From assembly GCA_964591715.1 (NCBI GenBank), contig CAZQDR010000004.1, forward strand, positions 375 to 64,374: DNA of 64,000 nucleotides, read 5' to 3'. The notes beneath the pieces are model-generated. The model was not told the origin of the DNA, did no database searches, and saw only the letters and a list, made by a program, of their open reading frames with translations. Each line of letters begins with the position of its first letter. Positions within the stretch are counted from its first letter, which is position 1. The translations under genes and the position numbers were made by a program. This document shows positions 4,605 through 60,185 of the stretch, one piece after another. Source of the DNA: an uncultured Candidatus Saccharibacteria bacterium. GTDB lineage: Bacteria > Patescibacteriota > Minisyncoccia > Phycocordibacterales > JACOZG01.

Positions 4605-4979
4605 ATGATTAAAACAATTAAAAGAGTTGTGCCAGTTACGCTAAGTTTTTTACCTCTCTTGGCTGCCGCTCAGCAGGTGACCAATTTTAGTGATGTTGAT
4701 AGTTCCTTCCAGTCCATAATTGATATTATTAACGTTTACATTATCCCGATTTTGGTTGGTATTGCGGTAGTTTACTTTATGTTGGGAGTGTTGAAGTATG
4801 TTCGAGCCGGGGGTGATGAGACTGCTCGAACGGAAGGACGACACATGATGATCTTCGGCATTATTGCCATTGCGGTTATGGTCTCAATCTGGGGCTTAGT
4901 TAACTTCTTGCGAAATTCCTTTGGTTTGTCTGGGGACCAGACATTACAGGGCGGATTGCCTCAAGTGCCAAGACAATAA
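4605..4979 (+). CDS. VirB2/TrbC-like small membrane protein paralog 4
   Basis: Signal peptide plus the C-terminal module 'MLGVLKYVRAGGDETARTEGRHMMIFGIIAIAVMVSIWGLVNFL', near-identical to paralog 3 at the nucleotide level. Confidence 0.5.
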   Translation: MIKTIKRVVPVTLSFLPLLAAAQQVTNFSDVDSSFQSIIDIINVYIIPILVGIAVVYFMLGVLKYVRAGGDETARTEGRHMMIFGIIAIAVMVSIWGLVNFLRNSFGLSGDQTLQGGLPQVPRQ

Positions 4980-24999: not shown

Positions 25000-27192
25000 T
25001 TACTTTTTAAGCTCGGCTAGTTTGTGTGGATTGTGGTTGGGGCAGAGTTTATTTGAACAGCGTTCGGGGATTGTTTTTGTTCCTTCCATCATCAAAGAGC
25101 TGCACATGGGGCAGATTTTACCAGTCGGTTTAGACTTAACAATATTTTTGCACTTCGGATAATTTGAACAGCCGTAGAAGATACCGTAGCGGCCGCGCTT
25201 TTCCACCATGGTGCCTGTTTTGCACAGCGGACAACTAACGCCCGTATCACCCAAACCACCCTTACCACCACTCTCATCTTTTTTAATATGTTTACACTTT
25301 GGATAGTTGGAGCAGGCAATAAATTTACCGAAGCGGCCTTCGCGCTCCATTAGTTGGTGGCCACACTCGGGACACTTTTCCTCTAAAAGTTTTGGTCCTT
25401 CCAATTCCTTACCATCAATCGTTCGGGCGCCCGTACACTCGGGGAACTTGGCACAACTCAAGAAGCGGCCCGATTTGCCCAGTTTAATAATCATCGGACC
25501 CCCACAAACTGGACATTTAATACCTTTGGGACCATCACCCAAGTTAGTGATTTTAGGAATCTTCTTTTTGGAGGCAATGGCTTTGGTGAAAGGACCGTAA
25601 AATTCGCTTAAAGTTTTTACATATTTTTTGGTCCCGTCCGCAATCTCATCCAGCTCATCTTCCATAATGCGGGTAAAGTCGTCGCTGATATAAGTGGCAA
25701 AGTGCTCCTCGAGAAAGCCCGAAACAACTTCGCCGGTGTCGGTGGGTTTTAAACTGCGGCCCTCTTTCTCAACGTAGCCGCGATCAAGAATCGTTTTAAT
25801 AGTGGGGGCGTAAGTTGAAGGTCGGCCAATGCCGCGCTTCTCGAGCTCTTTAACCAAACCAGCTTCCGAGTAGCGCGGTGGCGGCTGCGTTTCCTTGCCG
25901 GTCGAGGTAATCTCCTTCAACTCCAACGGATCGCCAGTCGAGACTTTTGGTAAAACATTTTCCTCGCCGCGGGCGGCCGGGTCAGCTTTGAGCCAACCGT
26001 CAAAAAGCACAACCGAACCATTGGCATGGAAGTCGGGGATATCCTTATTAGCCGCCGCAATAATCTTTGTCTTAAGCAGTCGGGCATCAGCCATTTGGCT
26101 GGAGACCGTGCGCGCCCAGATTAATTGATAGAGCTTTTGCTCCTGCGGCGTTTGGCCAGCCGAGAGTACATCGGCATGGGTCGGTCGAATAGCCTCGTGC
26201 GCCTCCTGAGCGTTCTTGGATTTAGTTGCAAAGACTTGGCGGTGATGATAATTAGCGCCGAATTTTTTGGCTACCACTTGCTCAATTTCTCCCAGCGCCA
26301 TCGTGCTGAGATTTAAACTATCGGTACGCATATAGGTAATATGACCGGACTCGTACAATTTTTGGGCCAAGCGCATTGTTACCGAGGGTGAGTAACCCAG
26401 GCGGGAGGAGGCGTATTGTTGCAGGGTGGAAGTGGTAAAGGGAGGGCGAGCACGACGATTCATCTCACTTTGTTTAATGTCGGCAACTTGCCACTCACTA
26501 ACTTTGGCCTCACGGACAATCTTGTCGGCTTCCGCTTCGGTCTTTGGCTCAATCGCGCAATTAAAGGGGATTTCGGTGCCACTAGCGGTTTTGAAGCTGG
26601 CCTCAATGACCCAGTATTGCTCAGGGATAAAGGCGCGGATTTCCCGTTCGCGCTCGACTAAAATGCGCAACGCTGGCGACTGAACACGGCCCGCCGAGAG
26701 ACCATAGCGAAGCTTTTGCCAAATTAAACCCGAGAGATCATAACCGAAGAGGCGATCCAGCACGCGCCGCGCCTCTTGCGCCGTCTTTAAGTTGTCGTCG
26801 ATGGACCGCGGATGCTTCATTGCCTCTTGTACAGCGTGCTTGGTGATCTCGTGGAAGACAATTCGCTTGGGGTGCTTTAAACCGATGGCCTCTTTTAAAT
26901 GCCAAGCAATCGCCTCACCTTCGCGGTCGGGGTCAGTCGCGAGTAAGACCTCACTCGCTTTTTTAGCAAGGGCTTTTAAATCACTCACCACCTTTTCTTT
27001 ACCCTTTGAGATTTCGTAATGCGGCACAAAGCCTGCCTTAATATCAATGGCATTTTTGTTGGACTTGGGTAAGTCGCGGATGTGACCGACGCTCGCGCGG
27101 ACGGTGTACTCATTGTCGAGGTATTTGGAAATCGTTTTCGCTTTGGCCGGTGACTCAACAATCAATAACTTTTTTCCGGTTGCGTTACTCAT
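25000..27192 (-). CDS. topA: DNA topoisomerase I with C-terminal zinc-ribbon repeats
   Basis: Toprim 'LLIVESPAKAKTISKYL', the active-site Tyr region 'GHITYMRTDS', and multiple CxxC...CxxC zinc ribbons in the C-terminal third. Confidence 0.95.
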   Translation of the reverse strand: MSNATGKKLLIVESPAKAKTISKYLDNEYTVRASVGHIRDLPKSNKNAIDIKAGFVPHYEISKGKEKVVSDLKALAKKASEVLLATDPDREGEAIAWHLKEAIGLKHPKRIVFHEITKHAVQEAMKHPRSIDDNLKTAQEARRVLDRLFGYDLSGLIWQKLRYGLSAGRVQSPALRILVEREREIRAFIPEQYWVIEASFKTASGTEIPFNCAIEPKTEAEADKIVREAKVSEWQVADIKQSEMNRRARPPFTTSTLQQYASSRLGYSPSVTMRLAQKLYESGHITYMRTDSLNLSTMALGEIEQVVAKKFGANYHHRQVFATKSKNAQEAHEAIRPTHADVLSAGQTPQEQKLYQLIWARTVSSQMADARLLKTKIIAAANKDIPDFHANGSVVLFDGWLKADPAARGEENVLPKVSTGDPLELKEITSTGKETQPPPRYSEAGLVKELEKRGIGRPSTYAPTIKTILDRGYVEKEGRSLKPTDTGEVVSGFLEEHFATYISDDFTRIMEDELDEIADGTKKYVKTLSEFYGPFTKAIASKKKIPKITNLGDGPKGIKCPVCGGPMIIKLGKSGRFLSCAKFPECTGARTIDGKELEGPKLLEEKCPECGHQLMEREGRFGKFIACSNYPKCKHIKKDESGGKGGLGDTGVSCPLCKTGTMVEKRGRYGIFYGCSNYPKCKNIVKSKPTGKICPMCSSLMMEGTKTIPERCSNKLCPNHNPHKLAELKK

Positions 27193-41415: not shown

Positions 41416-41604
41416 ACTGGAGTAAACCTATCGATAATTTGTTTGGCTTGTGACGTTGTCACGGGCTTTTTTCTTGTCCAAAATTCCCCTGAGCAGCCTA
41501 TAGAAGTTTAAATAAGTCAGTCTTGACGAACTGATTCATAAGTACTAGTTTTTGAGTAGTACTTAGTGTCAATGTTTAGTCCTTTAACTGTTAAGGGGGC
41601 CAAA

Positions 41605-42252
41605 ATGCTAGTAATTTCCCGATGCTTGAACGCGGGCATCAGAATCGGGGAAGACACCGAAGTTAAGGTGCTGCGACTGGGAACTCGCCGGGTGACGCTT
41701 GGGGTGGAGTGTCCCCCTGGGATACCAGTTTTCCGCAGCGAAGTAGCGCCGGAAATGTCGTCACCAGAGTCGCAAGCCCCGCCGCTAGACATCCGGGTTT
41801 TGATTGTTGAGGACATCCCCGTGCACGGACTTTTGATCGAGCGAAGCTTGTGCAAAAAGGGAGTCAGCCAGATTGAGAAGGTGACAAGCGCTGAAGATGC
41901 GATCAGGCTTCTGGAATCAATTCAGCAGAAGGAGCTGACACGGCCCGATTTGGTTTTGCTTGACCTTGGTTTACCGGGCGTGTCCGGCCTTGAGGTGCTC
42001 AAGAAGATCAGATCAGCGTTCGGTTGGGAAATCGCGGTGGTGGTTCTGACCTGCAGTAACCTCGCCGAGGATTACCGCCAGGCTATGGCGGCGGGTGCCA
42101 ACGCTTTCGTCTCCAAGGGCGAGAGTTACGAAGCTTTTAGACAGCAGCTTTTGTCGATCATCAACTTTTGGGGTAAGGTGGCCTATCGCTTTCGGTATGG
42201 CTTGGGCTCGGCGCGCGCCGAGCCTTTTTTGATCAGTGCGGAGCGCTGGTAA
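41605..42252 (+). CDS. CsrA-like RNA-binding domain fused to a response-regulator receiver (REC) domain
   Basis: RBS AAGGGGG before ATG 41605. The N-terminus 'MLVISRCLNAGIRIGEDTEVKVLRLGTRRVTLGVECPPGIPVFRSEV' aligns with CsrA 'MLILTRRVGE..IGDD..V.VL...G.QVRIGI.APK.V.V.REEI'. The C-terminus is a REC domain with the phospho-acceptor region 'LVLLDLGLPGVSG', T/S 'VVVLTCS' and K 'AFVSKG'. Confidence 0.6.
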   Translation: MLVISRCLNAGIRIGEDTEVKVLRLGTRRVTLGVECPPGIPVFRSEVAPEMSSPESQAPPLDIRVLIVEDIPVHGLLIERSLCKKGVSQIEKVTSAEDAIRLLESIQQKELTRPDLVLLDLGLPGVSGLEVLKKIRSAFGWEIAVVVLTCSNLAEDYRQAMAAGANAFVSKGESYEAFRQQLLSIINFWGKVAYRFRYGLGSARAEPFLISAERW

Positions 42253-49637: not shown

Positions 49638-50357
49638 TTAGCTTCCGGAAGACTCATGATATGGTCGACCAAAGAAGGTTACCCAGAGATAATTAATAAC
49701 GTAGCGCCAAGTTAAACGCAGGACACCAAGTCGGTTGAAGCGACGGGCCGATGATTCGACGACCAGGTCATTTTGGAATAGCACCTTGCCTACCTTGGCC
49801 AGTTGTCGGGCGAGCTCAGTATCATCGCCGTGAAATACGAAACTGGTATCATAGCCCCCGATCTTCTCCAGAGCGCTGGCGCGCATTACCACATTGCCCC
49901 CAACCATCACCAAGCCGCGACGGAAGAGGTGGTAGTTGACCGTGCTTACCCAATTGTAAACTATCTTTTGCGATAGTGTCGTCCAAAAAGCAAACCAGCG
50001 GCCGCGATCGTAATAGTGGTAGGGTCCAGTCACGGCGACCACGTTTGGGTTGGCGAAATAGCGGCCGGCGCGCTTCAACCAGTCGGTTGGCGGTAGGCAA
50101 TCGGCATCCAGATTGGCAATTAGTTCGCCAGTGGCTGCTTGCCGACCGCACTCCCGGGCAAACTGCGTGCCCCGGCGCGACTCGTGCAAAAGTTTAACGG
50201 CGGGGAAGGCCGCCACCTTACCGGCCGTGTCATCCGTGCTGTTGTTATCGACCACTATTACCTCGTAGTCGGGAAAGTCGAGCCGGAAGACAGCCTCAAG
50301 CGTGGCAGTAATAAAATTAGACTCATTGTGGGCCGGGATAATTATGGAAACCTTCAT
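49638..50357 (-). CDS. Family 2 glycosyltransferase
   Basis: 'VSIIIPAHNE', 'VVDNNSTDDT', 'ANLDADC' (DxD). Confidence 0.8.
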   Translation of the reverse strand: MKVSIIIPAHNESNFITATLEAVFRLDFPDYEVIVVDNNSTDDTAGKVAAFPAVKLLHESRRGTQFARECGRQAATGELIANLDADCLPPTDWLKRAGRYFANPNVVAVTGPYHYYDRGRWFAFWTTLSQKIVYNWVSTVNYHLFRRGLVMVGGNVVMRASALEKIGGYDTSFVFHGDDTELARQLAKVGKVLFQNDLVVESSARRFNRLGVLRLTWRYVINYLWVTFFGRPYHESSGS

Positions 50358-50393
50358 ATAGCTATGTTGAGCTGGGTATAGTATACTAAAAAT

Positions 50394-50873
50394 ATGAATA
50401 ACAAAACATTAGTTTCCCTTATTGTAATTATTGTTATTATCATTGGCGCGGTGTGGTATTTTAACCGCCCAGCGCCAGTAGTCTCTGAACCAATTATCCC
50501 AACACCAAGCGAGATGGCGACCACCACCCTGCCTTTACCAACTGGCACTTCCACTGTAAGCACGAGCACCAGTTCGGTCCCGACTGCTACCACAACACCT
50601 AAGGTGTTAACGGTCACTGGTTCCAATTTTGCTTTCGCTCCCACTCAACTAACGGTCAAAAAGGGCGAGACCGTAACAATCAACTTCGAAAATACTGGCG
50701 GTTTGCATGACTGGAAGATTGATGAGTTTAATGCCGCCACTAAAAAGATTAACGGCGGCCAAACCGATTCTGTTACTTTCGTTGCTGACAAAGCTGGCTC
50801 GTTTGAGTATTACTGTTCGGTCGGAACGCATCGCCAAATGGGTATGCGTGGTACCCTTATCGTGACGCCGTAA
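50394..50873 (+). CDS. Membrane-anchored cupredoxin (type-1 blue-copper, plastocyanin/azurin-like) protein
   Basis: N-terminal TM helix, Thr/Ser/Pro linker, then a cupredoxin domain with the ligand pattern 'LHDW' ... 'YYCSVGTHRQMGM' (His, Cys, His, Met). Confidence 0.7.
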   Translation: MNNKTLVSLIVIIVIIIGAVWYFNRPAPVVSEPIIPTPSEMATTTLPLPTGTSTVSTSTSSVPTATTTPKVLTVTGSNFAFAPTQLTVKKGETVTINFENTGGLHDWKIDEFNAATKKINGGQTDSVTFVADKAGSFEYYCSVGTHRQMGMRGTLIVTP

Positions 50874-50888
50874 GTTTAATTTTTCAGA

Positions 50889-52175
50889 ATGTTTCGTCGC
50901 CCCGTTCTCTACGCTTTATTTTTTATCAACTTGGGAATTGTCGGCTTCATCTGGTGGAGCGGTTCCCACTCTCTTTTGGTCAACCAAAGCGGTGTCGCCA
51001 TTGCCTTCGGTCGCTTGGCGGGATTGCTGATGGAGTATTTTATTTTGGTCCAGCTCGTATTGATTGGTCGGATCAGACCAGTGGAGCGAGAGTTTGGTCA
51101 TGATAAATTAAATCGGGTTCATCGGACACTCGGATACAGTTTGGCGGCGGTTTTGCTCCTTCACCCATTTTTGTTGACGCTCGGTTACGCCTGGCAGAGT
51201 AATCGTTCGCTGATTGGTCAATTCTCAAATTTCCTCACTAGTTGGGATGATGTGGCTAAAGCGGCCGCCGCCCTAGTTATCTTTGTTGTTATTATCGGCA
51301 TTTCCGTGGCGATCGTTCGTCGCAAACTGCGATACGAGACTTGGTACTTTAGCCACCTGTCACTATACGTGGCAATTTTCTTGGCGTTTGATCATCAAAC
51401 CAAAACGGCCGACGTGAGTTTTGGTTGGCCGCTCTACTATTGGCTTGGCTTAAACTACTTGGTGTTTGGCCTGTTGCTTGCTTATCGCTTTCTCCGGCCA
51501 CTCTACCTCTTCAATCGTCATCGCTTTACTGTAGAGAAAGTGGTACCCGAGACACACGATGTTCAGTCCGTTTATATTCGCGGACGTAAACTCGAGCGCT
51601 ATCGGTTTGAGGCGGGGCAGTTTGTTAATGTTACCTTCCTGCGACGAGGGATGTGGTACACGCATCCATTCTCCTTTTCGGCGGCGCCCAACGGTAAGTA
51701 TCTCCGGCTGTCCATTAAGCGCAGCGGGGACTTTACCTCGCAGATTCAGAATATTAAGCCAGGCACTAAAGTGATTTTAGATGGTCCGCTCGGCCGCTTC
51801 ACCACGCGCGCGGCTACTCGCTCCAAGTTTTTGCTAATCGCTGGTGGTATCGGAATTACGCCGCTGCGTTCGTTAACCGAGGAACTAGCGGCAGCGAAGA
51901 AGGATTTTATATTATTGTTTGCGAATAAAACGGAAGCGGATGTGGTTTTTAAAACTGAACTGGAGCAATTGGCGCTGGGGGACCGCTGGCACAATCTATT
52001 CTCGAGTCAGGGTCAATATGTCGACGCCGCACAAATTAAAACTATCGCAGCAGATTTTATGGAGCGCGAAGTTTACTTATGCGGCCCGCCACCAATGTTG
52101 AAGGGGGTGCGAAAAGTACTCTTGGATCTTGGTTTGCCGGCGGAGCAGCTCCACTACGAAATCTTTGCTTACTAG
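50889..52175 (+). CDS. Ferric-reductase/NOX-family membrane flavocytochrome (6-TM heme domain + FAD + NAD(P)H domains)
   Basis: TM His pairs ('HRTLGY...LLLHPF', 'FSHLSLY...FDHQ'), FAD-binding 'HPFSFSA', NAD-binding 'LLIAGGIGITPLRS', and C-terminal 'CGPPPM'. Confidence 0.7.
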   Translation: MFRRPVLYALFFINLGIVGFIWWSGSHSLLVNQSGVAIAFGRLAGLLMEYFILVQLVLIGRIRPVEREFGHDKLNRVHRTLGYSLAAVLLLHPFLLTLGYAWQSNRSLIGQFSNFLTSWDDVAKAAAALVIFVVIIGISVAIVRRKLRYETWYFSHLSLYVAIFLAFDHQTKTADVSFGWPLYYWLGLNYLVFGLLLAYRFLRPLYLFNRHRFTVEKVVPETHDVQSVYIRGRKLERYRFEAGQFVNVTFLRRGMWYTHPFSFSAAPNGKYLRLSIKRSGDFTSQIQNIKPGTKVILDGPLGRFTTRAATRSKFLLIAGGIGITPLRSLTEELAAAKKDFILLFANKTEADVVFKTELEQLALGDRWHNLFSSQGQYVDAAQIKTIAADFMEREVYLCGPPPMLKGVRKVLLDLGLPAEQLHYEIFAY

Positions 52176-52238
52176 TTTGACAAGGTTGGGGATTGGCATA
52201 AAGTAAAACTAGTCACCCATTTTTGAAAGGGGGTTCTT

Positions 52239-52679
52239 TTGAAAACTAATCAAAGGCTGTGGCGCCTGCCACTAGAGGTCCCGCGCCAGGCAATGACTAG
52301 CCGCGAACGATTTTGGTATTCTCGCCCGCGCTTGCGCCGTTGGCTCAAGCACAATTGCTGGTTCTTGGTCTACGGTGTTCATGCCGTCTTCGCGGCCAGC
52401 GTATTTGCTTGGCTGATGCTTAGGGATGAATTTGTTCTGGCGTTCCTAGCCTTGACGATTCAAATGCTGGTTTATCTGGCAACGAGCTACATTATCGTCA
52501 ACTTGCTTGAGCCATTCTTTGAGGTCGGGGATTTTCGCTACTGTCCCAAGTGCGAGGCGGCGGTGCGACCCCACTTTAGCTCACCGTTCTTTGGGTGGCG
52601 TCGGCGAGTGAGTTGTCCCAACGAAGACTGTGGCCATGTCTTCCATTGCGAAAGCGCCAAATTATCAGCTGATCCGTAG
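52239..52679 (+). CDS. Hypothetical membrane protein with C-terminal zinc-ribbon (CPKC...CPNEDCGH)
   Basis: Two TM helices, then a Cys4-type ribbon. No recognisable family. Confidence 0.4.
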   Translation: MKTNQRLWRLPLEVPRQAMTSRERFWYSRPRLRRWLKHNCWFLVYGVHAVFAASVFAWLMLRDEFVLAFLALTIQMLVYLATSYIIVNLLEPFFEVGDFRYCPKCEAAVRPHFSSPFFGWRRRVSCPNEDCGHVFHCESAKLSADP

Positions 52680-52788
52680 TCACTTAAGGCCCTCCACTCG
52701 GAGGGTCTTTTCTATACTCAAAATTAGTGTTAGATTCTAAATGGCGTTTAAATAGTCGGATCTAACCTTCTATAAGTAGGAGCAACCA

Positions 52789-53262
52789 ATGCAGCCGTCT
52801 ATTGAGGCGATTCAGGATGTCTTCTTTTGTGGGATGAGGGAAGGCTGGGCTTTTGGTTATGAGCCGGCCCAGAAAGGGCCCGAGCAATTTTACCGGTATG
52901 TCACTGGCAGCTGGGAACTCATAGACGGTTATGAGGCTGGTTTACCAGACCACTACAGTGTTGGGCAAACCACTATCCGGTATTGCGGGGTTCCGGTGTG
53001 GGTGATGCATTATTTTGGTTATTACCATCCGGCGGTGATCGATTGCGTGAAGCTGGCTCTTCGAGATTGTTACGTACGAAATTTCTTTTGGGGTGGGCGT
53101 GGTCCAGCAAAGTTTACTCACCTAGGCCTCACCTATCTCAACCATGTGTCTTTGGCTGCTTTGGAATTCCAGCGATTCTCGGGACAAGAAGAGGTGCTTC
53201 ATCCTCACGGATTCCAGTTAGGCTTTCATTGCTACCACGGTGGCGTCCTTTTTGCTCATTGA
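52789..53262 (+). CDS. Hypothetical protein (157 aa)
   Basis: RBS AGGAG before the ATG, with the strong terminator 53276-53312 right after the stop. No recognisable family. Confidence 0.45.
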   Translation: MQPSIEAIQDVFFCGMREGWAFGYEPAQKGPEQFYRYVTGSWELIDGYEAGLPDHYSVGQTTIRYCGVPVWVMHYFGYYHPAVIDCVKLALRDCYVRNFFWGGRGPAKFTHLGLTYLNHVSLAALEFQRFSGQEEVLHPHGFQLGFHCYHGGVLFAH

Positions 53263-53275
53263 AGCGACGACAAAC

Positions 53276-53312
53276 TAAACCCCCGACTGCGCCCGCAGTC
53301 GGGGGTTATTTT
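53276..53312. terminator. Bidirectional rho-independent terminator
   Basis: CCCCCGACTGCG/CGCAGTCGGGGG stem (12 bp) with CCCG loop and T-rich tracts on both sides, between convergent genes. Confidence 0.75.
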
Positions 53313-53319
53313 TTAATAA

Positions 53320-53697
53320 TTAGTGAGCTAGACTGCCAATTTTGAAGTTGGCCAGGGCAGCCTCGGGCTGGGGTTGGCCACCGTGTTGATTAGTGAAGGC
53401 GCTGGAGCCATCAGTACCGCACAGGCCCAAGATGGCTTGACTGCCGCCTGGGTGATCACTAATCCAACTGGTCAGATCGTAAACTGAACCATTAACGGCG
53501 GCGTAGCAACTGGTGGCACTGTTATGCTTGGCGATTTCGGCCAAACTAATCTCGTCCGCAGCGACCGGCGTACTGGTTGCTATTGGTTCTGGGGTAGGGG
53601 TCACCGGAGCGGAAGTACCCTGATTGTAATTAAAGGCGACGGCACCAATAATAATCAAAACAATAACGATAATAGAAATAAGTAAGGTTTTATTCAT
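53320..53697 (-). CDS. Membrane-anchored cytochrome b5-like heme-binding domain protein
   Basis: TM helix 'LLISIIVIVLIIIGAVAF'. Cyt-b5-like 'ISLAEIAKHNSATSCYAAVNGSVYDLTSWISDHPGGSQAIL' carries the HPGG motif, with a second His in 'FTNQHGG'. Start taken at MNKTLL. Confidence 0.5.
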   Translation of the reverse strand: MNKTLLISIIVIVLIIIGAVAFNYNQGTSAPVTPTPEPIATSTPVAADEISLAEIAKHNSATSCYAAVNGSVYDLTSWISDHPGGSQAILGLCGTDGSSAFTNQHGGQPQPEAALANFKIGSLAH

Positions 53698-53704
53698 AAA
53701 TATT

Positions 53705-54121
53705 TTATTGGCGATTAAATGGTGCGGTTGATGAGGCGGGGCGGATTTGAATTGCTTGGGCGCTAACACTGCCGTCTTGGTTAGGGCTACCGGTGACGGA
53801 AATTTGTTGACCCACCTGCAAGTCGGTAACCGATCCCGCAGTCATTTTGGTGACAGCGGTAGAGGAACTGAAGAAGATAATTTTTGAACCAGCCTCACGC
53901 AGTTTGAGGGTAATACTTTGATTGTCGGCGCTCATAATTTCGCCAGCCGTTACGGCGCCTTGAGGCAGCCCCATTGTGGCGCGGTTAAAGTTGCGGTTGG
54001 CGTTTTGTCCGGCCAGTCCCGCGGCCGCGGGACTGGCGGCCGCTTTGCTGCCGCTATAGTAGCCGGCCAAACCGCCGACAGCTAGAGCAATAATAAGATA
54101 AGTGATGATTTGTTTGTTCAT
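53705..54121 (-). CDS. Hypothetical membrane-anchored protein (138 aa)
   Basis: N-terminal TM helix and an Ala/Ser/Gly-rich extracytoplasmic domain. Confidence 0.4.
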   Translation of the reverse strand: MNKQIITYLIIALAVGGLAGYYSGSKAAASPAAAGLAGQNANRNFNRATMGLPQGAVTAGEIMSADNQSITLKLREAGSKIIFFSSSTAVTKMTAGSVTDLQVGQQISVTGSPNQDGSVSAQAIQIRPASSTAPFNRQ

Positions 54122-54134
54122 GATGATAATTATT

Positions 54135-55346
54135 TTATTCGTAACGCAGGGCCTGGATCGGGTTTAGTCCCGCGGCGCGTCGCGCCGGGTAGTAACCAAA
54201 CAAGATCCCAATGGCCGCTGAGACACCGAAGGCCAACAGCACCGAACTTAGCGATACCTTAGTTTGGATAATACCGGTGCTGGTGACAATAAATGATATC
54301 AGCCAGCCCAAAAGTACGCCAATCAGTCCGCCGACAAAGGTGAGCATCACCGCCTCGATTAGGAACTGGAGATTAATATCGCGGCGCTTGGCCCCAATCG
54401 CTTTGCGCAAGCCGATCTCCTTGGTCCGCTCGGTGACAGTGGTGAGCATCATATTCATAATACCGATACCACCAACGACGAGCGAAATGCCAGCAATCGA
54501 GGCCAGAAAGAGCGTGAAGGTGTTTACCACTTGCGAGAGTGTGCCCAAGATATCTTGCTGGGAGATAATGGAAAAGTCAGCTTCGTCCACGCGGTGTTTC
54601 TCGAGCAGGGCATCAGTAATGACTTGCTGGACAGCGCTGATGTTATCTTTGTCGGTAACCGAGACTGAAATAGTTGATAGGTAGTCCACGCCACTTAAAA
54701 CTTTTTGCATTGTTGAGAGGGGGACGATTACCATATCGTCAGGACCAGAGAAGCCCGCCCCACCCTTGGACTCAAGAACGCCGACAACGCGGAAGATGCT
54801 GCCGTTAATGCGCAGACTTTTACCGATCGGGTCGTCCTCACCGAAGAGGTCCGTTGCGACTGTGGCACCGAGCACCGCCTCGCGGCCAATGTTTCTTAGC
54901 GAAGCGTCCGAAATAAATGAGCCGTTACTTAAATTTAAATTTCTTAGCGTTAGGTAGCTTGGGTTAACGCCGTTAACCGTGGTGTTGGTGTTGTTGCCGG
55001 TGCCGGCCGCGATCTGGAAGCGGCGTGAGAGTTCGGGCGAAATCAAAGAGACACCCTCAATGGCCTCAATCACTCCAACATCCTCGTTCAATAATGTTTG
55101 GGCCGAGCCGCGTCCAGAGGAGACAATGCCGCGGCCGGGTTGGACGACACCTGGCAGAATGGTCAGCAAATTGGAGCCCAAGCCCTCGATGCTCGACTGG
55201 ATTTGGGCCTTGGCCCCCTCGCCAATTGATACCATGGCAATAACTGAGCTGATACCAATAACGATACCGAGCATGGTTAAACCCGAACGGACTTTGTTGG
55301 CTGAGAGGGCGGTATAAGTCTCGTGGAAGATGTCGCGGATGGTCAT
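54135..55346 (-). CDS. ABC transporter permease, MacB/FtsX family
   Basis: N-terminal TM helix, large periplasmic MacB-type domain, and C-terminal FtsX four-helix bundle ('LRKAIGAKRRDI'). Confidence 0.85.
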   Translation of the reverse strand: MTIRDIFHETYTALSANKVRSGLTMLGIVIGISSVIAMVSIGEGAKAQIQSSIEGLGSNLLTILPGVVQPGRGIVSSGRGSAQTLLNEDVGVIEAIEGVSLISPELSRRFQIAAGTGNNTNTTVNGVNPSYLTLRNLNLSNGSFISDASLRNIGREAVLGATVATDLFGEDDPIGKSLRINGSIFRVVGVLESKGGAGFSGPDDMVIVPLSTMQKVLSGVDYLSTISVSVTDKDNISAVQQVITDALLEKHRVDEADFSIISQQDILGTLSQVVNTFTLFLASIAGISLVVGGIGIMNMMLTTVTERTKEIGLRKAIGAKRRDINLQFLIEAVMLTFVGGLIGVLLGWLISFIVTSTGIIQTKVSLSSVLLAFGVSAAIGILFGYYPARRAAGLNPIQALRYE

Positions 55347-56026
55347 AATTTTTTATCTTGAATAATTTCGCCGTCACGCAAATAAATAATTCGGCGGGCA
55401 TGCTGGGCAACGTCGAGCTCGTGAGTAATTAACACAATGGTTCGGCCAAGTTCCTCGTTAAGTTTTTTGAAAGTGTCCAAAACAATTTCGCCCGTTTTAG
55501 TATCGAGGTTGCCGGTTGGCTCATCCGCTAGGATTAGCGAAGGATTGTTAACTAAAGCGCGGGCGATAGCCACGCGCTGAATTTGACCACCCGAGAGCTG
55601 GTTGGAGCGATGGTAAAAGTGAGCCTCATCCAAGCCGGCGGCGGTCAGAGCCGCCTTGGCCCGCTTAACTCGCTCTACGTCGCTAACGCCCGCATAAACG
55701 AGCGGTAACATGGCGTTCCTTAGCACTGTGGTGCGGGGCAAGAGGTTGAAGGACTGAAAGACGAAACCAATTTTATCGCGGCGAATGTCGGCCAGTTCAT
55801 CGTCGCTTAAAGTCGAAACATCTTTGCCGTCTAAAAGATACGTTCCCGCGGTTGGCGTATCAAGAGCGCCTAAAATATGCATTAGCGTTGATTTGCCCGA
55901 GCCCGACGGTCCCATGATCGCCACAAACTCGCCGTCATCAATCGTAAAGCTCGCACCCTTGAGCGCCTGGAAGGGTAAGGTCCCGATGGAGTCGTAGGTT
56001 TTGCTGATATTGGTTACTTGGATCAT
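55343..56026 (-). CDS. ABC transporter ATP-binding protein (MacB/LolD-type)
   Basis: Walker A 'GPSGSGKSTLMHILG', signature 'LSGGQIQRVAIARAL', Walker B 'LILADEPTGNLD'. Start taken at the internal Met (MIQVTN) to avoid a 50-nt overlap with the adaptor gene. Confidence 0.9.
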   Translation of the reverse strand: MIQVTNISKTYDSIGTLPFQALKGASFTIDDGEFVAIMGPSGSGKSTLMHILGALDTPTAGTYLLDGKDVSTLSDDELADIRRDKIGFVFQSFNLLPRTTVLRNAMLPLVYAGVSDVERVKRAKAALTAAGLDEAHFYHRSNQLSGGQIQRVAIARALVNNPSLILADEPTGNLDTKTGEIVLDTFKKLNEELGRTIVLITHELDVAQHARRIIYLRDGEIIQDKKL

Positions 56027-56027
56027 T

Positions 56028-57677
56028 TTAACGAGTCGTTGCGCGAGGAGCGGCGGTGGTGCGGTTGTTACCACCAAAGAGGCTCGGGCTACTGGCGGGC
56101 GCTGCTGCTGCCGTCGCCGAGATAGTTCGCGAAACTACCTGATCGCCCTCGCTTAAGCCTGAAAGAATCTCGGTGTCCGAGTCGCTGGTGCTGCCCACTA
56201 CGACCACCTTCTCTGTTGGCACCATTGCGGAGCTCACACCAACTGTCCCAGCTGGGCCCTCAGGTAGTGGGGGATCAAAGACTAAAACATAGCGGGATTC
56301 GCCGCTGGACTTAACCGCGCCATTGGGCACGGTTAGAACATTTGATTTAACCTCAGTAATAATCGCCGCGGTAACACTCATACCCGGTTTGATCCGGACA
56401 TCATCAGTATCAAAAACTATTTTGACGTTGTAAGTCACGACCCCTTGGTCAACGGTGCCCACTTGGTCAACCTCGCTCACCTCGCCGCTAATCGTTAAGC
56501 CCTCGATCGCGTCAAAGGTGAGAGTGGCTTTGTTACCAACGCTTATTTTGGAGACATCCACCTCGTTGAGTGAGATGTCGGCAATTTTTTTAGCGCTCAC
56601 CACTGTCGCCACGACAGTACTGCCACTCACCGAGTCGGCGACCTTCACATTCATTTTGCCAACAATGCCCGCAAACGGCGCGCGGATAAAGTAATCATTA
56701 TAAGCTTGTTCTTTTTGACGGAGAGCAAGTTGCTGTGAGGCGATATCCAAGCTATCAGCACCCTCAACAAGATCAGACAAGGCATTTTTACTGTTGGTGA
56801 GAGAATTGATGGCGGAAATGATGCTGGAAGAGTTCTCGTTTATGGTGGTGGACCAGGTGTTCACATTGTTGCCCGCCGTGGTAGCGGCCGCAGGTTGGTA
56901 GGTAGGCTCATTGGTGGCCAAGAAGACGATGGCCGAACGGGCATCCTTTAAACTCTCGGCGTAGTATTGGGCTAACTGGGCAGTGTCGCTAAGAAAAGAC
57001 TCGATATTCTCGGCGGTGCTTGTCCGAGAGAGCGTACTGTATTTGATCAGGGAGGAGTTGTAAAACTTTTCCGCTCTGTCAAAGTTGCGAGCGGCGCGGT
57101 CGCGATAGTCGCGGGCCGTCACATTGCTCGAAAAGACGCCCCCGCCGTTATTGTTAAGGTAACCACTTGTTCCGTATAAGAGATCTTTTAGGCCGCTGTT
57201 AACGACCGGCAAATCTAAAAAGGTTCCGGTGATGGCGTTCCAGGCATCGTTATAACTTTTGTTGACTGAGTCGCGAGCGGCGACCAAATCCTTGGCGTCG
57301 GCTGGCTTAACCAACTTTTGGTAGGCGATCCGGGCTGTCTCTAAAGCAATCTCGGCGTCGCGCGCATCAATTTGAGCTAAGAGCTGGCCGGCGCCCACTG
57401 TTTGGCCGGTGGTAGCACCAATCGCCACCACGTCACCGGAGACCTTACTTTTAACATCAAGCTGGCTGGAGCCCGACACTTGTCCAGTGCCGGAGATGGA
57501 GCTGATCAGGTTGCCTCTCGTTGCGGTCGTTAAAACATACCGGGGTTGGCCGCTGGTGCTAGTGGCCGAGCGGATACTATAGTAGGCGATAGCCGCGATG
57601 ACTAAAACCAAAATACTGCTTAAAATCAGGTGGGCCCGAACCCAAGTCTTGGCACGATAAAAAAATGTAGTGTTCAT
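56028..57677 (-). CDS. Periplasmic adaptor (HlyD/MacA membrane-fusion family) protein
   Basis: N-terminal TM helix, biotin-lipoyl-like 'DVKSKVSGDVVAIGATTGQTVGAGQLLAQID', a long coiled-coil, and a C-terminal beta-barrel region. Confidence 0.7.
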   Translation of the reverse strand: MNTTFFYRAKTWVRAHLILSSILVLVIAAIAYYSIRSATSTSGQPRYVLTTATRGNLISSISGTGQVSGSSQLDVKSKVSGDVVAIGATTGQTVGAGQLLAQIDARDAEIALETARIAYQKLVKPADAKDLVAARDSVNKSYNDAWNAITGTFLDLPVVNSGLKDLLYGTSGYLNNNGGGVFSSNVTARDYRDRAARNFDRAEKFYNSSLIKYSTLSRTSTAENIESFLSDTAQLAQYYAESLKDARSAIVFLATNEPTYQPAAATTAGNNVNTWSTTINENSSSIISAINSLTNSKNALSDLVEGADSLDIASQQLALRQKEQAYNDYFIRAPFAGIVGKMNVKVADSVSGSTVVATVVSAKKIADISLNEVDVSKISVGNKATLTFDAIEGLTISGEVSEVDQVGTVDQGVVTYNVKIVFDTDDVRIKPGMSVTAAIITEVKSNVLTVPNGAVKSSGESRYVLVFDPPLPEGPAGTVGVSSAMVPTEKVVVVGSTSDSDTEILSGLSEGDQVVSRTISATAAAAPASSPSLFGGNNRTTAAPRATTR

Positions 57678-57782
57678 TGATTAGTAGTTTATCACTTTTA
57701 GAACAAAACTCCACCTGGTATATCTCTGAGGCTGTTTCGGTGTATAATATGAAGGTGAAGGTTCTATTACTATAAATAACTT

Positions 57783-57941
57783 ATGACTATGGACGAAGAG
57801 ACAATGCAGCAGGACAGCGTAGTTTGTCCTGAGTGCGGTAGCGACATGAAGAAGGATGGAGAAATGATGACTTGCGAGAAGTGTGGTCACACTATGCCAG
57901 CTGGCGAGGGCAGCAGCGAGGACAAGGAGGAGATGGTCTAA
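57783..57941 (+). CDS. Small zinc-ribbon protein (52 aa)
   Basis: 'CPECGSDMKK...CEKCGHTM' and an acidic tail. TATAAAT 7 nt upstream (possibly leaderless) and a strong terminator right after the stop. Below the track's size cut-off. Confidence 0.35.
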   Translation: MTMDEETMQQDSVVCPECGSDMKKDGEMMTCEKCGHTMPAGEGSSEDKEEMV

Positions 57942-57961
57942 GCCCGAACCGAACGCAACCA

Positions 57962-58004
57962 CAAAAAGGGTGCTATACTCAAGGAGTAGAGCACCCTTTT
58001 TAGT
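57962..58004 (+). terminator. Rho-independent terminator
   Basis: AAAAAGGGTGCTATACTC...GAGTAGAGCACCCTTTTT hairpin. Confidence 0.7.
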
Positions 58005-58017
58005 CTGCAAACTCATT

Positions 58018-58596
58018 ATGAATAATACTCCCATTACGGAATCAATAGTGCTCGGCGGCGGCTGCTTTTGGTGTACCGAAGCGGTGTTTAAAATGTTGCG
58101 CGGCGTTAAGTCGGTAATGCCGGGCTATGCGGGCGGTACCAATACCAAGTCGGGCCAGTCGCCAACCTATGAGGAAGTCTCAACGGGTAAGACGGGTCAC
58201 GCCGAGGCGGTTAAAATTGTTTACGATCCACTCCTAATTAAGCTTGAGGATTTACTGACTGTCTTTTTTGCCACTCACGATCCGACCACGCCCGACCGCC
58301 AGGGTAATGACATTGGTCCCCAGTATCGCTCAATTATTTTGTATAACACGTCCGAGCAGAGAGTGGCAGCTGAAATGTTTATTAAAGAATTAAATGCCAG
58401 TAGCGCGAGTGGGGCGCCGATTGTGACCGAGCTTAAGCCGCTTAAGAACTTTTATGAAGCCGAGGACTATCACCAGGATTATTACGCCAAGAACTCGCGG
58501 CAGATGTATTGTCAGGTGGTGATCAATCCCAAGCTTGAGAAAGTCCAGCAAAAGTTTGGCGCCCTACTTGATCGCCCCGAGGAGCACGTGCGCTAA
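58018..58596 (+). CDS. msrA: Peptide methionine sulfoxide reductase MsrA
   Basis: 'ESIVLGGGCFWCTEAVF' (the active-site GCFWC) and 'YHQDYY'. Start taken at MNNTPI after the terminator. The track ORF starts upstream. Confidence 0.9.
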   Translation: MNNTPITESIVLGGGCFWCTEAVFKMLRGVKSVMPGYAGGTNTKSGQSPTYEEVSTGKTGHAEAVKIVYDPLLIKLEDLLTVFFATHDPTTPDRQGNDIGPQYRSIILYNTSEQRVAAEMFIKELNASSASGAPIVTELKPLKNFYEAEDYHQDYYAKNSRQMYCQVVINPKLEKVQQKFGALLDRPEEHVR

Positions 58597-58607
58597 TTTA
58601 AATTGTC

Positions 58608-60185
58608 ATGAGTTTAGTCCGCGCGAAAAATATCTATAAAAGTTACAACGAGCATCCGGTGTTGGCGGATGTCAGTTTTAGTTTGGAGCCCGGGCAAAAA
58701 GTGGCCCTGGTTGGACCCAACGGCACGGGCAAGACCACGCTCTTAAAGATTATTGCGGGATTGGAGGAAATGGAGAAAGGATCGCTCCAGTTTGCCAAAA
58801 ACTTACGCATTGGCTACCTGGCCCAAGACACTAGCCTGGCCGGCCAAGAGACGGTAGCCGAGTATTTGCGCGGCCGCCAAGAGCGCGGCGAGCCGGATTA
58901 TCACTGGCAAGTGATGCTGGCCGGTTTTGGCCTTCTAGACGAGACCCACGGGCGGCCGCTGCAAGAGCTAAGCAGTGGTCAAAAAAGCAAAGTGGCCTTG
59001 GCGGGCATCTTGCTGCGCGGCGCCGACTTATTATTGCTCGACGAACCAACCAATAATTTGGATTTGCCGGCGCTGATTTGGCTGGAGGACTTTTTGCTTA
59101 AGTCGGAGGCGGCCGCACTGGTTGTCTCGCATGACCGCCGCTTCCTTGACCGGGTGGTGCGCAAAATTTTTGAACTCGACTGGGAAACGCGCGGGCTCAA
59201 AATCAGCGGCGGTAGTTACAGCGATTATTTAATGATGGAGGTTAAGCGGCTCAATCGTCGCAAAGAGGAGTATCGCCTGCAACAGGAGGAGATTGCGCGG
59301 CTTAAAAGTGCCGTGGTGGAGAAGCGCGAGGATGCCGAGGCGGGCGCGCGCTTTGTGGGTACCGACAACGATAAATTGATTCGCGGCTTCTTTCGTGATC
59401 GGGCCAAGGGTTCGGCGCGCACGGCAACCGTCATCAATCGTCGCATTAAACGGATTAAGCGGGTGGATGATCCGGAGGAGCGTGAGCCGCTGGTGTTGGA
59501 GGTAGCCGCGGATCGCGGCACGGGCGAACTAGATTTGGCGGCGCAAAAAGTGCTGGCCGGTTACCCCGATGGTTTTAAACTCGGACCGGTAACGCTCGAC
59601 ATCCGCTTTGGTACGCGCGTGGGTATTATGGGTTTAAATGGCTCGGGCAAATCAACACTTTTAAAAACGCTGACGGGGGAGCTCGCACCGCTGGCCGGTA
59701 ACGTGAGTGTGGGCTCGGGAGTGCGTTTTGGCAACATGATGCAAGAGCACGAGAGTTTAAATCGGGAGCAGACACCGCTCGAATTTTTGCAGGCGAAGAC
59801 GACGCTCCGAGTGCAAGATATTTTTAATTTGTTAGTAAAATTTAATTTTGACGAACCGCAGATCAAAGCCGCGATTGGTACCTTAAGTCCAGGTGGTCGG
59901 GCGCGATTGCTCCTGGCCCTCTTCTCAGCCCAAGGTGTTAACACGCTGGCGCTCGATGAGCCGACTAATCATTTGGATATTGATGCCCAAGCGGCGCTTG
60001 AGGCCATGCTCGCCAGTTATGAGGGGACAGTGCTTTTGGTCTCGCACGATCGCTACTTTATTGAGCAAGCCAAATTGGATTATGTTTACGTGCTCGAAGA
60101 TAACACTTTGCATAAAATTGGCGACTACGCCGAGTATGTAGCTAAGGCCGAGGAACGGGCCAAACGCCTGTTGCGCCTCCTGTAG
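58608..60185 (+). CDS. ABC-F family ATPase (two fused ABC domains, no TM segments)
   Basis: Two Walker A motifs ('GPNGTGKTTLL', 'GLNGSGKSTLL'), two signatures ('LSSGQKSKVALA', 'LSPGGRARLLLA'), and an inter-domain linker with a coiled-coil. Confidence 0.9.
   Translation: MSLVRAKNIYKSYNEHPVLADVSFSLEPGQKVALVGPNGTGKTTLLKIIAGLEEMEKGSLQFAKNLRIGYLAQDTSLAGQETVAEYLRGRQERGEPDYHWQVMLAGFGLLDETHGRPLQELSSGQKSKVALAGILLRGADLLLLDEPTNNLDLPALIWLEDFLLKSEAAALVVSHDRRFLDRVVRKIFELDWETRGLKISGGSYSDYLMMEVKRLNRRKEEYRLQQEEIARLKSAVVEKREDAEAGARFVGTDNDKLIRGFFRDRAKGSARTATVINRRIKRIKRVDDPEEREPLVLEVAADRGTGELDLAAQKVLAGYPDGFKLGPVTLDIRFGTRVGIMGLNGSGKSTLLKTLTGELAPLAGNVSVGSGVRFGNMMQEHESLNREQTPLEFLQAKTTLRVQDIFNLLVKFNFDEPQIKAAIGTLSPGGRARLLLALFSAQGVNTLALDEPTNHLDIDAQAALEAMLASYEGTVLLVSHDRYFIEQAKLDYVYVLEDNTLHKIGDYAEYVAKAEERAKRLLRLL

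Follow-up and report, generated by a model that had tools for sequence, protein, structure and literature searches.

A NOX-like flavocytochrome paired with a tethered cupredoxin or an exported cytochrome b5 in the Candidate Phyla Radiation: a possible route for electron export

A gene encoding a flavocytochrome of the NADPH oxidase (NOX) type was identified in a 64,000-nucleotide stretch of DNA from an uncultured Candidatus Saccharibacteria bacterium (GenBank assembly GCA_964591715.1, contig CAZQDR010000004.1, positions 375 to 64,374 of the forward strand). This whole stretch is referred to as the window, and positions are given in its coordinates. The NOX gene is accompanied by the genes of two putative electron carriers, a membrane-tethered cupredoxin and a cytochrome b5-like protein. 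According to the best explanation of this arrangement, which we hold with slightly better than even confidence, electrons pass from NAD(P)H through FAD and two hemes of the NOX-like enzyme to the tethered cupredoxin or b5 domain outside the membrane. This explanation draws on the domain identities and conserved cofactor ligands of the three proteins, on the fold of the enzyme, on a gene order conserved across Candidate Phyla Radiation (CPR) lineages and on a natural NOX-b5 fusion.

The NOX-like enzyme and its two candidate carriers

Judged by its sequence and its structural model, the 428-aa product of the NOX gene belongs to the transmembrane NAD(P)H dehydrogenases of the NOX type, as a further member of a known family. 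It matches the Pfam families Ferric_reduct (PF01794, 60.1 bits, cut-off 28), FAD_binding_8 (PF08022, 38 bits, cut-off 22) and NAD_binding_1 (PF00175, 49.5 bits, cut-off 22). The protein therefore carries in one chain the three domains that define the bacterial long form in the superfamily named after the ferric reductase domain (FRD; Zhang 2013, PMC3591440). The heme ligands are His78 and His156 for the inner heme and His92 and His169 for the outer heme, the two histidines of transmembrane helix (TM) 3 (His78 and His92) being 14 residues apart and those of TM5 (His156 and His169) 13 residues apart. The FAD motif HPFS is found at residues 259-262 and the NAD(P)H motifs GGIGITP and CGPPPM at 319-325 and 398-403; Phe426 is located in the NAD(P)H lobe. 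The four histidines, HPFS, G320, G322, T324, P325 and C398-G399-P400 do not vary among 34 relatives, in which I321 and I323 are nearly invariant. The four histidines and the motif HPF[ST] are also kept in 23 more distant relatives.

The nearest relative of solved structure by sequence is SpNOX of Streptococcus pneumoniae (E 1e-18), whose residues His69, His83, His129 and His142 align with the four histidines. The AlphaFold2 model, built on the 34 relatives, has a predicted local distance difference test (pLDDT) score of 89.8. It displays six long membrane helices (4-31, 33-60, 71-104, 120-144, 149-172 and 179-211) followed by a two-lobed dehydrogenase domain. A Foldseek search with this model returned SpNOX (8qt6) as the top match over the full length (template modelling scores 0.74/0.79), followed by DUOX1, NOX2 and NOX5. 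The loops TM1/2, TM3/4 and TM5/6 comprise about 2, 15 and 6 residues in the model. With loops this short on the outer face, the outer heme is expected to be exposed. That of SpNOX is exposed and hands electrons directly to protein acceptors (PMC11564096).

Three of the sequence features used by Hajjar 2017 (PMC5676040) to recognise bacterial NOX proteins are found here: two bis-histidyl motifs separated by 20 residues or more, a number of membrane helices between three and seven, and the NAD motif (GIGITP at 320-325). The FAD motif differs from the filter H[PSA]F[TS][LIMV] of the same authors, as the sequence reads HPFSF, with a Phe outside the permitted set at the fifth position. The relatives P0039 and P0064 carry HPFSI, and most CPR members have Phe at this position, so the published filter would overlook most of the CPR NOX clade. 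The signature given by Zhang 2013 for NOX enzymes that generate reactive oxygen includes a Thr-Gly dipeptide in TM4 (Thr-178/Gly-179 of NOX2); its equivalent here, counted back from the TM5 histidine and not taken from a direct NOX2 alignment, would be K124-A125-A126, with A125 invariant and no Thr-Gly. The family is large: at E <= 1e-30, a library of 1.84 billion proteins yielded 2,658 representative clusters. Among the matches listed from the genome collection, the relatives are mostly distant Actinobacteria and Chloroflexi, while the metagenome scan yielded about 12 full-length relatives, the remainder being FNR-only matches. The named homologues of the NOX-like protein, and likewise those of the cupredoxin, are Patescibacteria. 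Assignment of the protein to YedZ/MsrQ, which consists of the FRD domain only and has Arg in place of the first heme His, was considered and ruled out, since the dehydrogenase domain is present and His78 is kept.

The NOX gene starts 15 nt past the stop codon of the cupredoxin gene, on the same strand. The cupredoxin (159 aa) matches Cupredoxin_1 (PF13473, 47.2 bits) and Copper-bind (PF00127, 44.4 bits), both above the cut-off. It is predicted to consist of an N-terminal anchor (residues 5-23), a Thr/Ser/Pro-rich linker (about 25-70) and the cupredoxin domain (about 71-159), and the anchor and linker suggest that this domain is placed on the extracytoplasmic side. The copper ligands His105, Cys141, His146 and Met151 are unchanged in all 32 homologues aligned (about 50% mean identity). 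Among solved structures it is best matched by the additional cupredoxin domain that two NirK enzymes, 2dv6 and 6tfd, carry at the N-terminus (E ~1e-16), and the ligands line up with the ligand-bearing segment YYCS..HRQ.GM of 2dv6. The copper-resistance cuproprotein CopI (NCBIfam NF051440) was also considered as an identity of this protein. The match reaches 40.3 bits against a cut-off of 280 and covers the last 41 residues only; as a partial match far below the equivalog cut-off, it was rejected.

The b5-like protein (125 aa) matches Pfam Cyt-b5 (PF00173) with 66 bits against a cut-off of 23.7. The ATG at 53697 was taken as its start; the longer, GTG-started open reading frame (ORF) is not supported by the related locus L082. 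The protein contains an anchor (residues 4-22), a Pro/Thr linker and a domain with His82 (in HPGG), His105 (in QHGG), Cys64 and Cys93. Comparison with solved b5 structures (E 1e-11 to 1e-12) gave a clean alignment at the HPGG histidine and a less clean one at the second histidine: His105, 23 residues past His82, stands at the ligand position against 4b8n and two residues early against 3ozz. The QHGG motif is kept in the b5 of L082 and in the fused b5 protein P0381 described below. In an alignment of 13 NOX-linked b5 proteins, His82-Pro83 and the Cys64/Cys93 pair never change, and the aligned classical b5 has Thr and Ala where the two cysteines stand. The cysteines are likely to form a disulfide, which would fit an oxidising, extracytoplasmic location of the domain, and the pair may mark an exported b5 subfamily. 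DsbA and VKOR are also encoded in the window. The window b5 is not of the tyrosine-ligated cytb5MY kind, as HPGG and the second histidine are kept and the best matches are classical b5 proteins; the tyrosines of the MAPR type were not sought specifically.

In the cupredoxin, in the b5 protein and in the DUF5666-like protein encoded next to the latter, a single hydrophobic helix at the N-terminus leads into a linker rich in Pro, Thr and Ser. Their anchors, encoded at 50394-50465, 53629-53697 and 54053-54121, are alike (MN(N)KTL..IIVI..IIIGAV), and the cupredoxin and b5 protein cross-match with E 1e-6 through the anchor only. The idea that the anchors are a docking signal was set aside because other exported proteins of the clade show the same anchor style; the similarity is probably a generic signal-anchor style of the clade.

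A preliminary description of this DNA, made from the sequence alone, had named a membrane-tethered type-1 copper protein with His/Cys/His/Met ligands, a six-TM di-heme ferric reductase fused to FAD and NAD(P)H domains, and a membrane-anchored HPGG b5 protein convergent with the other two. All three genes lie where it placed them, and each cofactor motif is present and conserved; its assignment of domains and ligands and its reasoning on topology hold. The profile comparison it had called for returned Ferric_reduct, FAD_binding_8, Copper-bind and Cyt-b5 above their cut-offs, and the NAD domain was matched as NAD_binding_1. A loss of the heme histidine pairs or copper ligands upon alignment, which it had named as evidence against itself, was not seen. 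The grouping of the three genes into one cluster needs correction: the cupredoxin and NOX genes form an operon, and the b5 gene belongs to a separate, convergent operon in which it follows the genes of a membrane-fusion protein (MFP), an ABC ATPase, a MacB-type permease and the DUF5666-like protein.

Gene order and fusions in related loci

The surroundings of the NOX gene were compared in 14 non-redundant CPR lineages with sufficient flanking sequence, whose NOX proteins are 47-86% identical to that of the window. One of the two carriers is encoded within 6 kb of the NOX gene in 10 of the 14. The cupredoxin gene is directly upstream and co-oriented, at a distance of 14-33 nt, in four lineages (the window together with L082, and the loci of P0003, P0039 and P0064); the NOX proteins of the three lineages beyond that of the window are 62%, 51% and 48% identical to the window protein. 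Two lineages (L002 and L086) have a cupredoxin gene within 6 kb. The position directly upstream of the NOX gene on the same strand is occupied by an anchored b5 gene in another four lineages (L169, with a gap of 6 nt, L090/091, L092/093 and L094). In a rough neighbor-joining tree, the cupredoxin-linked and b5-linked NOX proteins are interleaved, implying that the partner was swapped more than once.

The best 150 of the 2,658 NOX family representatives were searched for fusions. In the metagenomic protein P0381 (603 aa), a NOX-like enzyme (42% identical to that of the window) is followed by an extra hydrophobic helix, which a Pro/Thr linker joins to a b5 domain. This b5 domain shares 52% identity with the window b5 (E 4e-30, to the C-terminus), including QHGG and both cysteines. 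Because of the extra helix, it should lie on the membrane side opposite the dehydrogenase domain. In another protein, P0491, the place of the b5 domain is taken by an FMN_bind domain. No cupredoxin-NOX fusion was found among these 150 representatives. The N-terminal extensions of P0510, P0517, P0521 and P0507 contain no Pfam domain, and P0514 carries GtrA.

Genes for b5 proteins with a signal peptide or an anchor were also found immediately downstream of distant NOX-like genes in Pacearchaeota, Woesearchaeota, three gammaproteobacterial metagenome-assembled genomes (MAGs), Buchananbacteria and Saccharibacteria. A gene for a rubrerythrin whose signal peptide looks cleavable adjoins the NOX-like gene in two MAGs labelled Victivallaceae and Kiritimatiellae (Table 1), which points to peroxide being reduced outside the cytoplasm at the expense of NAD(P)H. 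Every NOX partner seen is an exported redox protein. In two lineages, L084/085 and L086/087, the NOX-like gene lies beside Nramp and MgtE-like genes, which hints at a role in metal reduction there.

Proposed electron route, alternatives and known systems

The route would begin with the transfer of a hydride from cytoplasmic NAD(P)H onto the FAD of the NOX-like enzyme. Single electrons would then move from FAD to the inner heme, from there to the outer heme and on to the exterior of the membrane. They would be accepted by small one-electron carrier domains, each tethered to the membrane of the enzyme through an anchor at the N-terminus and a flexible linker of Pro, Thr and Ser. We propose that the blue-copper cupredoxin of the NOX operon is one such carrier and that the bis-His cytochrome b5 at the end of the convergent pump operon is a second, probably alternative one. 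The copper-dependent cupredoxin and the heme-dependent b5 look interchangeable in the way plastocyanin and cytochrome c6 are. The linkers, about 45 residues in the cupredoxin and about 25 in the b5 protein, would let the carrier domains shuttle between the NOX-like enzyme and a farther acceptor. The carriers could then reduce an extracytoplasmic terminal acceptor, candidates for which are NirK encoded elsewhere in the genome, proteins that detoxify O2 or peroxide, and Fe(III)/Cu(II). In NOX2, electrons exit while protons remain inside. The pathway would by analogy dissipate membrane potential rather than build it, and its role would be that of an electron sink or a supply of redox power to the envelope, not that of respiration or of an energy-conserving chain. 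From the data described above we infer the electron transfer to the carriers, the membrane side of the carriers, the direction of flow and the physiological role. The core idea of the preliminary description, a transfer of electrons from NAD(P)H across the membrane to a carrier that binds copper or heme, is backed by the conserved gene order, the NOX-b5 fusion and the fold match to SpNOX.

A fuller version of this proposal is more tentative, and we regard it as rather doubtful. In it, the cupredoxin and, interchangeably, the exported b5 protein would be the physiological acceptors of the NOX-like enzyme; the enzyme and carrier would make up a minimal export chain working without quinone or bc1, which would feed the CPR cupredoxin and NirK or other reductases and would act, in nominally fermentative, ultrasmall bacteria attached to hosts, as a regulated electron sink that conserves no energy.

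Several points weigh against the proposed export of electrons to the two carriers. Its basis is sequence, structural model and gene order. Four of the 14 lineages (L084, L088, L168 and L172) have neither carrier within 6-8 kb of the NOX gene. In the window itself, the b5 gene stands in another operon than the NOX gene, as the last gene of the convergent pump operon, and the second b5 histidine is 1-2 residues off its canonical position in one of the two alignments. The NOX-b5 fusion is a single metagenomic protein prediction and could be an artefact of gene calling or assembly. No NirK or multicopper oxidase gene is present in the window, nor within 6-8 kb in the Pfam-annotated related loci. 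Finally, given the promiscuity of SpNOX in vitro, such an enzyme has no strict need of a dedicated partner.

No genes for heme biosynthesis or uptake were found within the window, which covers part of the genome only. The preliminary description had regarded the absence of a heme source from the genome as a refutation. It would not refute the function, because heme auxotrophs use heme proteins; S. pneumoniae, the host of SpNOX, is fermentative and a heme auxotroph. The same description had called the redox genes unexpected in a fermentative lineage. They are less so than it supposed, as Ferric_reduct occurs in 1427 of 7645 CPR genomes (10.1101/2021.11.17.468889) and CPR cupredoxins are known from studies of NirK (PMC5581439).

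The enzyme might instead be a true NADPH oxidase, which would use O2 as its acceptor and form superoxide or H2O2 for attack on a host or for signalling, the cupredoxin and b5 protein being bystanders or handlers of reactive oxygen species (ROS). SpNOX, its closest solved relative by sequence and by fold, does consume O2 in vitro (PMC5676040). The window contains genes of oxidant defence, namely a Fe/Mn superoxide dismutase gene (12740-13348, +) and an MsrA gene (58018-58596, +), and MsrA or MsrB genes recur 3-5 kb from the NOX-like gene (L082, L084 and the P0039 locus). We nevertheless consider this explanation unlikely. The ROS-generating NOX group is marked by a histidine four residues past the outer TM3 ligand, His-119 in NOX2 (PMC3591440); here His92 is followed by P-F-L-L, so that position 96 is Leu, and the family consensus at this ligand is HPLLL. 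SpNOX has no recognisable O2-binding site, and mutants in candidate sites stay active (PMC11564096); according to the authors of its structure, O2 may not be the physiological acceptor of its bacterial homologues (PMC11564096; PMC5676040). O2 as the acceptor would also leave the conserved adjacency of the cupredoxin and b5 genes and the b5 fusion unexplained. Moreover, many CPR bacteria live in anoxic groundwater. An assimilatory ferric or cupric reductase serving uptake, as yeast Fre1 does, is likewise improbable; the cupredoxin would then function in copper handling and not in electron transport. Such a role agrees with the Nramp and MgtE-like genes beside the NOX-like gene in L084/085 and L086/087, to which a P-type ATPase gene is added in L084/085, and with the weak, partial CopI match of the cupredoxin. 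MsrQ-like proteins with NAD-binding domains have also been proposed as assimilatory iron reductases elsewhere (PMC8238504). However, neither Nramp nor any other metal transporter is encoded near the cluster or across the window, so that the metal uptake considered in the preliminary description is matched by gene order in two other lineages and not in the window. With its invariant His-Cys-His-Met ligands, the copper site is of the electron-transfer kind, and the replacement of the cupredoxin by a heme b5 at the same gene position fits an electron carrier, not a copper chaperone. In addition, ferric reduction by SpNOX is very slow (PMC11564096).

The redox genes could also be accessories of an envelope-stress module built around the MacB pump, with an extracytoplasmic function (ECF) sigma factor in relatives. 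They would then be tied to the substrate of the pump, for example a porphyrin, a metal or an antimicrobial, and would, like MsrPQ, supply electrons for repair or detoxification in the envelope. The order MFP-ABC-MacB-DUF5666-carrier recurs in the window, where the carrier is b5, and in L086 and L171, where it is cupredoxin (no separate ABC gene was called in L086). Related gene orders occur in L169 (b5-NOX-sigma70-...-MFP-ABC-MacB), in the P0039 locus (cupredoxin-NOX-FtsX-ABC) and in L170 (ABC-FtsX-sigma70-cupredoxin). The exported rubrerythrin that adjoins the NOX-like gene in L003 and L005 points the same way, and MsrQ/MsrP provides a precedent (PMC5676040, PMC11564096). On the other hand, the pump matched generic family models only, with no defined substrate, DUF5666 has no assigned function and its model reaches a pLDDT of 46, and the MsrA of the window has no signal sequence and is therefore cytoplasmic. 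We give this reading a low probability; it concerns the role of the genes and is compatible with electron export to the carriers, not exclusive of it. The view that the three genes are chance neighbors that do not work together is disfavored and seems very improbable. CPR genomes are small and densely packed, the anchors of exported proteins are alike, to the point that the cupredoxin-b5 cross-match arises from the anchor alone, and four lineages have no partner nearby. Yet co-oriented pairs with gaps of 6-33 nt recur in independent lineages at 48-62% NOX identity, and a fusion protein exists.

Among the known systems, SpNOX (PDB 8QQ7, 8QT6) is the best match by sequence and fold. It has the three-domain plan of the window enzyme, with six membrane helices that bind a pair of b hemes, an FAD domain and an NAD(P)H domain, and shares its heme-His spacing and short outer loops. 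The two proteins are only about 22-23% identical, and the FAD motif reads HPFSI in SpNOX. No dedicated partner of SpNOX is mentioned in PMC5676040 or PMC11564096, whereas a conserved gene for a cupredoxin or b5 protein adjoins that of the CPR enzyme; the SpNOX knockout has no identifiable phenotype (PMC5676040). In E. coli MsrQ/MsrP (YedZ/YedY), a membrane FRD heme protein also passes electrons from the interior to a soluble periplasmic redox protein. MsrQ has no dehydrogenase domain, receives its electrons from quinol or the flavin reductase Fre, has Arg in place of the first heme His (PMC3591440), and its partner is a molybdoenzyme and not a cupredoxin or b5 protein. The eukaryotic FRE/NOX proteins (yeast Fre1, NOX2, NOX5, DUOX) share the catalytic core and the vectorial, electrogenic export of electrons, and the fold search matched NOX2, DUOX1 and NOX5. 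In contrast to them, the window enzyme has no regulatory domains or subunits, has very short outer loops and carries Leu96 in place of His-119 of NOX2. In the actinobacterial MsrQ-like flavinylated systems (PMC8238504), PF01794 proteins, often with a C-terminal PF00175 domain, relay electrons from NAD(P)H in the cytosol to a carrier domain on the extracytosolic side, and the FMN_bind fusion P0491 corresponds to this type. The carrier there is an ApbE-flavinylated FMN-binding protein, whereas it binds copper or heme here; no ApbE or FMN_bind gene is present in the window cluster.

Two sets of CPR studies are closest to the present case. A preprint (10.1101/2021.11.17.468889) reported Ferric_reduct genes in the 1427 CPR genomes mentioned above, with a b5 gene within 10 kb in 185 of them, and its authors suggested a CPR-specific membrane complex whose function was left open. 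These pFre-b5 clusters come from the same lineage, contain the same Ferric_reduct gene family and have b5 within 10 kb; they differ from the window in their tyrosine-ligated, MAPR-like cytb5MY and two-component regulators, the window b5 being a bis-His HPGG protein. The pairing is not restricted to CPR, as that preprint had it, since b5 genes also follow NOX-like genes in DPANN archaea and Gammaproteobacteria. The other studies concern NirK. Among the cupredoxin donors of NirK (pseudoazurin, azurin and the N-terminal cupredoxin fused to the NirK of Hyphomicrobium and Thermus, 2DV6 and 6TFD), the window cupredoxin is most similar to the fused domain, from which it differs in being free-standing and membrane-tethered, with no NirK nearby. 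CPR cupredoxins have been proposed to feed NirK, and the two CPR studies that found cupredoxin and NirK genes identified no route for the electrons in cells lacking quinone and bc1 (PMC5581439, PMC12931201). If the proposed export is true, the NOX-like enzyme would fill this gap, and a part of the CPR would not be purely fermentative in its redox balance but could dump reducing equivalents outside the cell. The occurrence of NOX-like genes and of b5 neighbors in CPR is already known from the preprint, which does not mention cupredoxins, NOX enzymes or fusions. We found no description of a cupredoxin-NOX operon or of the NOX-b5 fusion in the full-text literature searched, the coverage of which is incomplete. 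The cupredoxin operon, the replacement by b5 and the fusion bear on the question of what bacterial NOX-like enzymes reduce in vivo, for which they name concrete protein acceptors.

Locus anatomy and other features of the window

The coordinates of the features are collected in Table 1. By its sequence, the locus would comprise two convergent transcription units. The plus-strand unit contains the cupredoxin gene, the NOX gene and a 146-aa ORF and closes at a hairpin with a U-run. In the minus-strand unit, the genes of the MFP, ABC ATPase, MacB permease, DUF5666-like protein and b5 follow one another with overlaps or with gaps of 7-13 nt. The promoter match upstream of the cupredoxin gene may be taken as a candidate start of the cupredoxin-NOX unit and no more.

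Table 1. Features of the redox locus and of related loci
Feature	Location	Strand	Basis or remark
Candidate sigma-70-like promoter, TTCATA-18-TATAGT, just 5' of the cupredoxin start codon	50353-50382	+	Consensus scan, 9/12 matches
Cupredoxin, membrane-tethered type-1 copper protein, 159 aa	50394-50873	+	Pfam, conserved ligands, anchor prediction
NOX-like flavocytochrome b (long-form FRD protein), 428 aa	50889-52175	+	Pfam, invariant residues, SpNOX match, AlphaFold2, Foldseek
Two-helix ORF, 146 aa, C-terminal CxxC...CxxxC zinc-ribbon-like tail	52239-52679	+	Helix prediction
Intrinsic-terminator-like hairpin, 10-bp stem then UUUUCU	52686-52714 (hairpin 52686-52709)	+	RNA fold -17.3 kcal/mol, z -5.6
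Lineage-specific insertion, about 600 bp	52712-53310	+	blastn against L082 (81% identical): 50002-52711 and 53311-58700 aligned, sequence between skipped
DUF5680-like ORF inside the insertion	52789-53262	+	Pfam DUF5680, 24.3 bits, just under the cut-off of 25
Bidirectional terminator, 13-bp GC-rich hairpin with T-runs on both strands, between insertion and b5 gene	53278-53307	both	Terminator scan, RNA fold
Membrane-tethered cytochrome b5-like protein, 125 aa	53320-53697	-	Pfam Cyt-b5, solved b5 matches, alignment
DUF5666-like protein with anchor, 138 aa, separated by 7 nt from the b5 gene downstream	53705-54121	-	Pfam DUF5666, 26.6 bits, cut-off 27
MacB-type ABC permease (MacB_PCD + FtsX)	54135-55346	-	NCBIfam MacB, E 5e-74; Pfam of the L082 orthologue
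ABC ATPase of the MacB-type pump	55343-56077	-	NCBIfam MacB, LolD and DarD ATPase models, E ~1e-65 to 1e-70; 4-nt overlap with permease start
Periplasmic adaptor (membrane-fusion) protein, whose gene opens the pump-DUF5666-b5 operon	56028-57677	-	NCBIfam RND_mfp, 118.7 bits, cut-off 94.9
Recurrent pump-carrier operon, window	53320-57677	-	
Recurrent pump-carrier operon, L086	8992-13220		
Recurrent pump-carrier operon, L171	2255-9006		
Recurrent pump-carrier operon, L169	7551-14761		
Exported b5 genes 3' of distant NOX-like genes (DPANN archaea, gammaproteobacterial MAGs)	L036 4352-4876; L064 1029-1469; L068 970-1362; L070 1443-1802; L077 6708-7070		
Signal-peptide rubrerythrin beside NOX-like gene, L003	5047-5676	+	MAGs of L003 and L005 labelled Victivallaceae and Kiritimatiellae (Planctomycetes-Verrucomicrobia-Chlamydiae group, PVC); NOX 43-47% identical to the window's
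Signal-peptide rubrerythrin beside NOX-like gene, L005	7429-8049	-	As for L003
NOX-like gene beside Nramp and MgtE-like genes, L084	107-5336		Plus P-type cation ATPase
NOX-like gene beside Nramp and MgtE-like genes, L086	871-5242		Plus ABC transporter

The 146-aa ORF has neither a Pfam nor an NCBIfam match, is conserved in the nearest relative L082/L083 only and is probably co-transcribed with the NOX gene. The sequence of the terminator-like hairpin behind it is kept in L082. The insertion of about 600 bp is not part of the redox system. The hairpin between the insertion and the b5 gene folds with -27.3 kcal/mol on the plus strand (z -7.4) and -27.2 kcal/mol on the minus strand (z -5.3). The 146-aa ORF, the insertion with its DUF5680-like ORF and the DUF5666-like gene were not included in the preliminary description.

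The DUF5666-like protein gave no match below E 0.2 against PDB sequences, its single-sequence AlphaFold2 model is unusable at the low score given above, and the literature on DUF5666 yielded nothing useful. DUF5666-like genes fill the same slot, between the MacB permease and cupredoxin genes, in L086 and L171. The L082 orthologue of the MFP matches Pfam BSH_RND and Beta-barrel_YknX. The MacB pump-DUF5666 operon repeatedly ends with the gene of a small exported carrier, either b5 or cupredoxin, and often lies behind an ECF sigma/anti-sigma pair. Pump-carrier arrangements, often with an ECF sigma factor, are present in L086, L169, L170, L171 and the P0039 locus, and this recurrent operon may hint at a role in envelope stress. 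In L171, a gene for a DUF2231 membrane protein comes next after the cupredoxin gene.

The possibility that the redox cluster is a horizontally acquired island was set aside, since the GC content at 50-54 kb equals that of the rest of the window. That remainder contains housekeeping genes, pilin-like genes of the type IV secretion system (T4SS) and nine tRNAs, as is typical of a small CPR genome. The named homologues of its topoisomerase I (25000-27192), at 70-74% identity, are from Candidatus Vogelbacteria, Paceibacterota, Nomurabacteria and Buchananbacteria, and on this basis the source was assigned to the Patescibacteria (CPR), of the Paceibacteria type. A search for identical sequence found only a duplicate contig of 2.6 kb.

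The genes for a DsbA-like protein of the thioredoxin fold (18587-19375), VKOR (19326-19760) and a Pyr_redox_2 flavoprotein (19757-21079) overlap in turn and form an apparent operon (18587-21079, +). The flavoprotein (440 aa) is of the NDH-2 or CoA-disulfide-reductase type. VKOR normally needs quinone, which CPR bacteria are not expected to make, and the flavoprotein may therefore replace or recycle the VKOR acceptor. Three consecutive small genes at 3410-4979 (+) match the T4SS pilin family PF18895, which is common in CPR genomes. At 41566-42252 (+), a CsrA domain (residues 14-63) and the receiver domain of a response regulator (residues 78-193) are joined in one protein, an unusual fusion.

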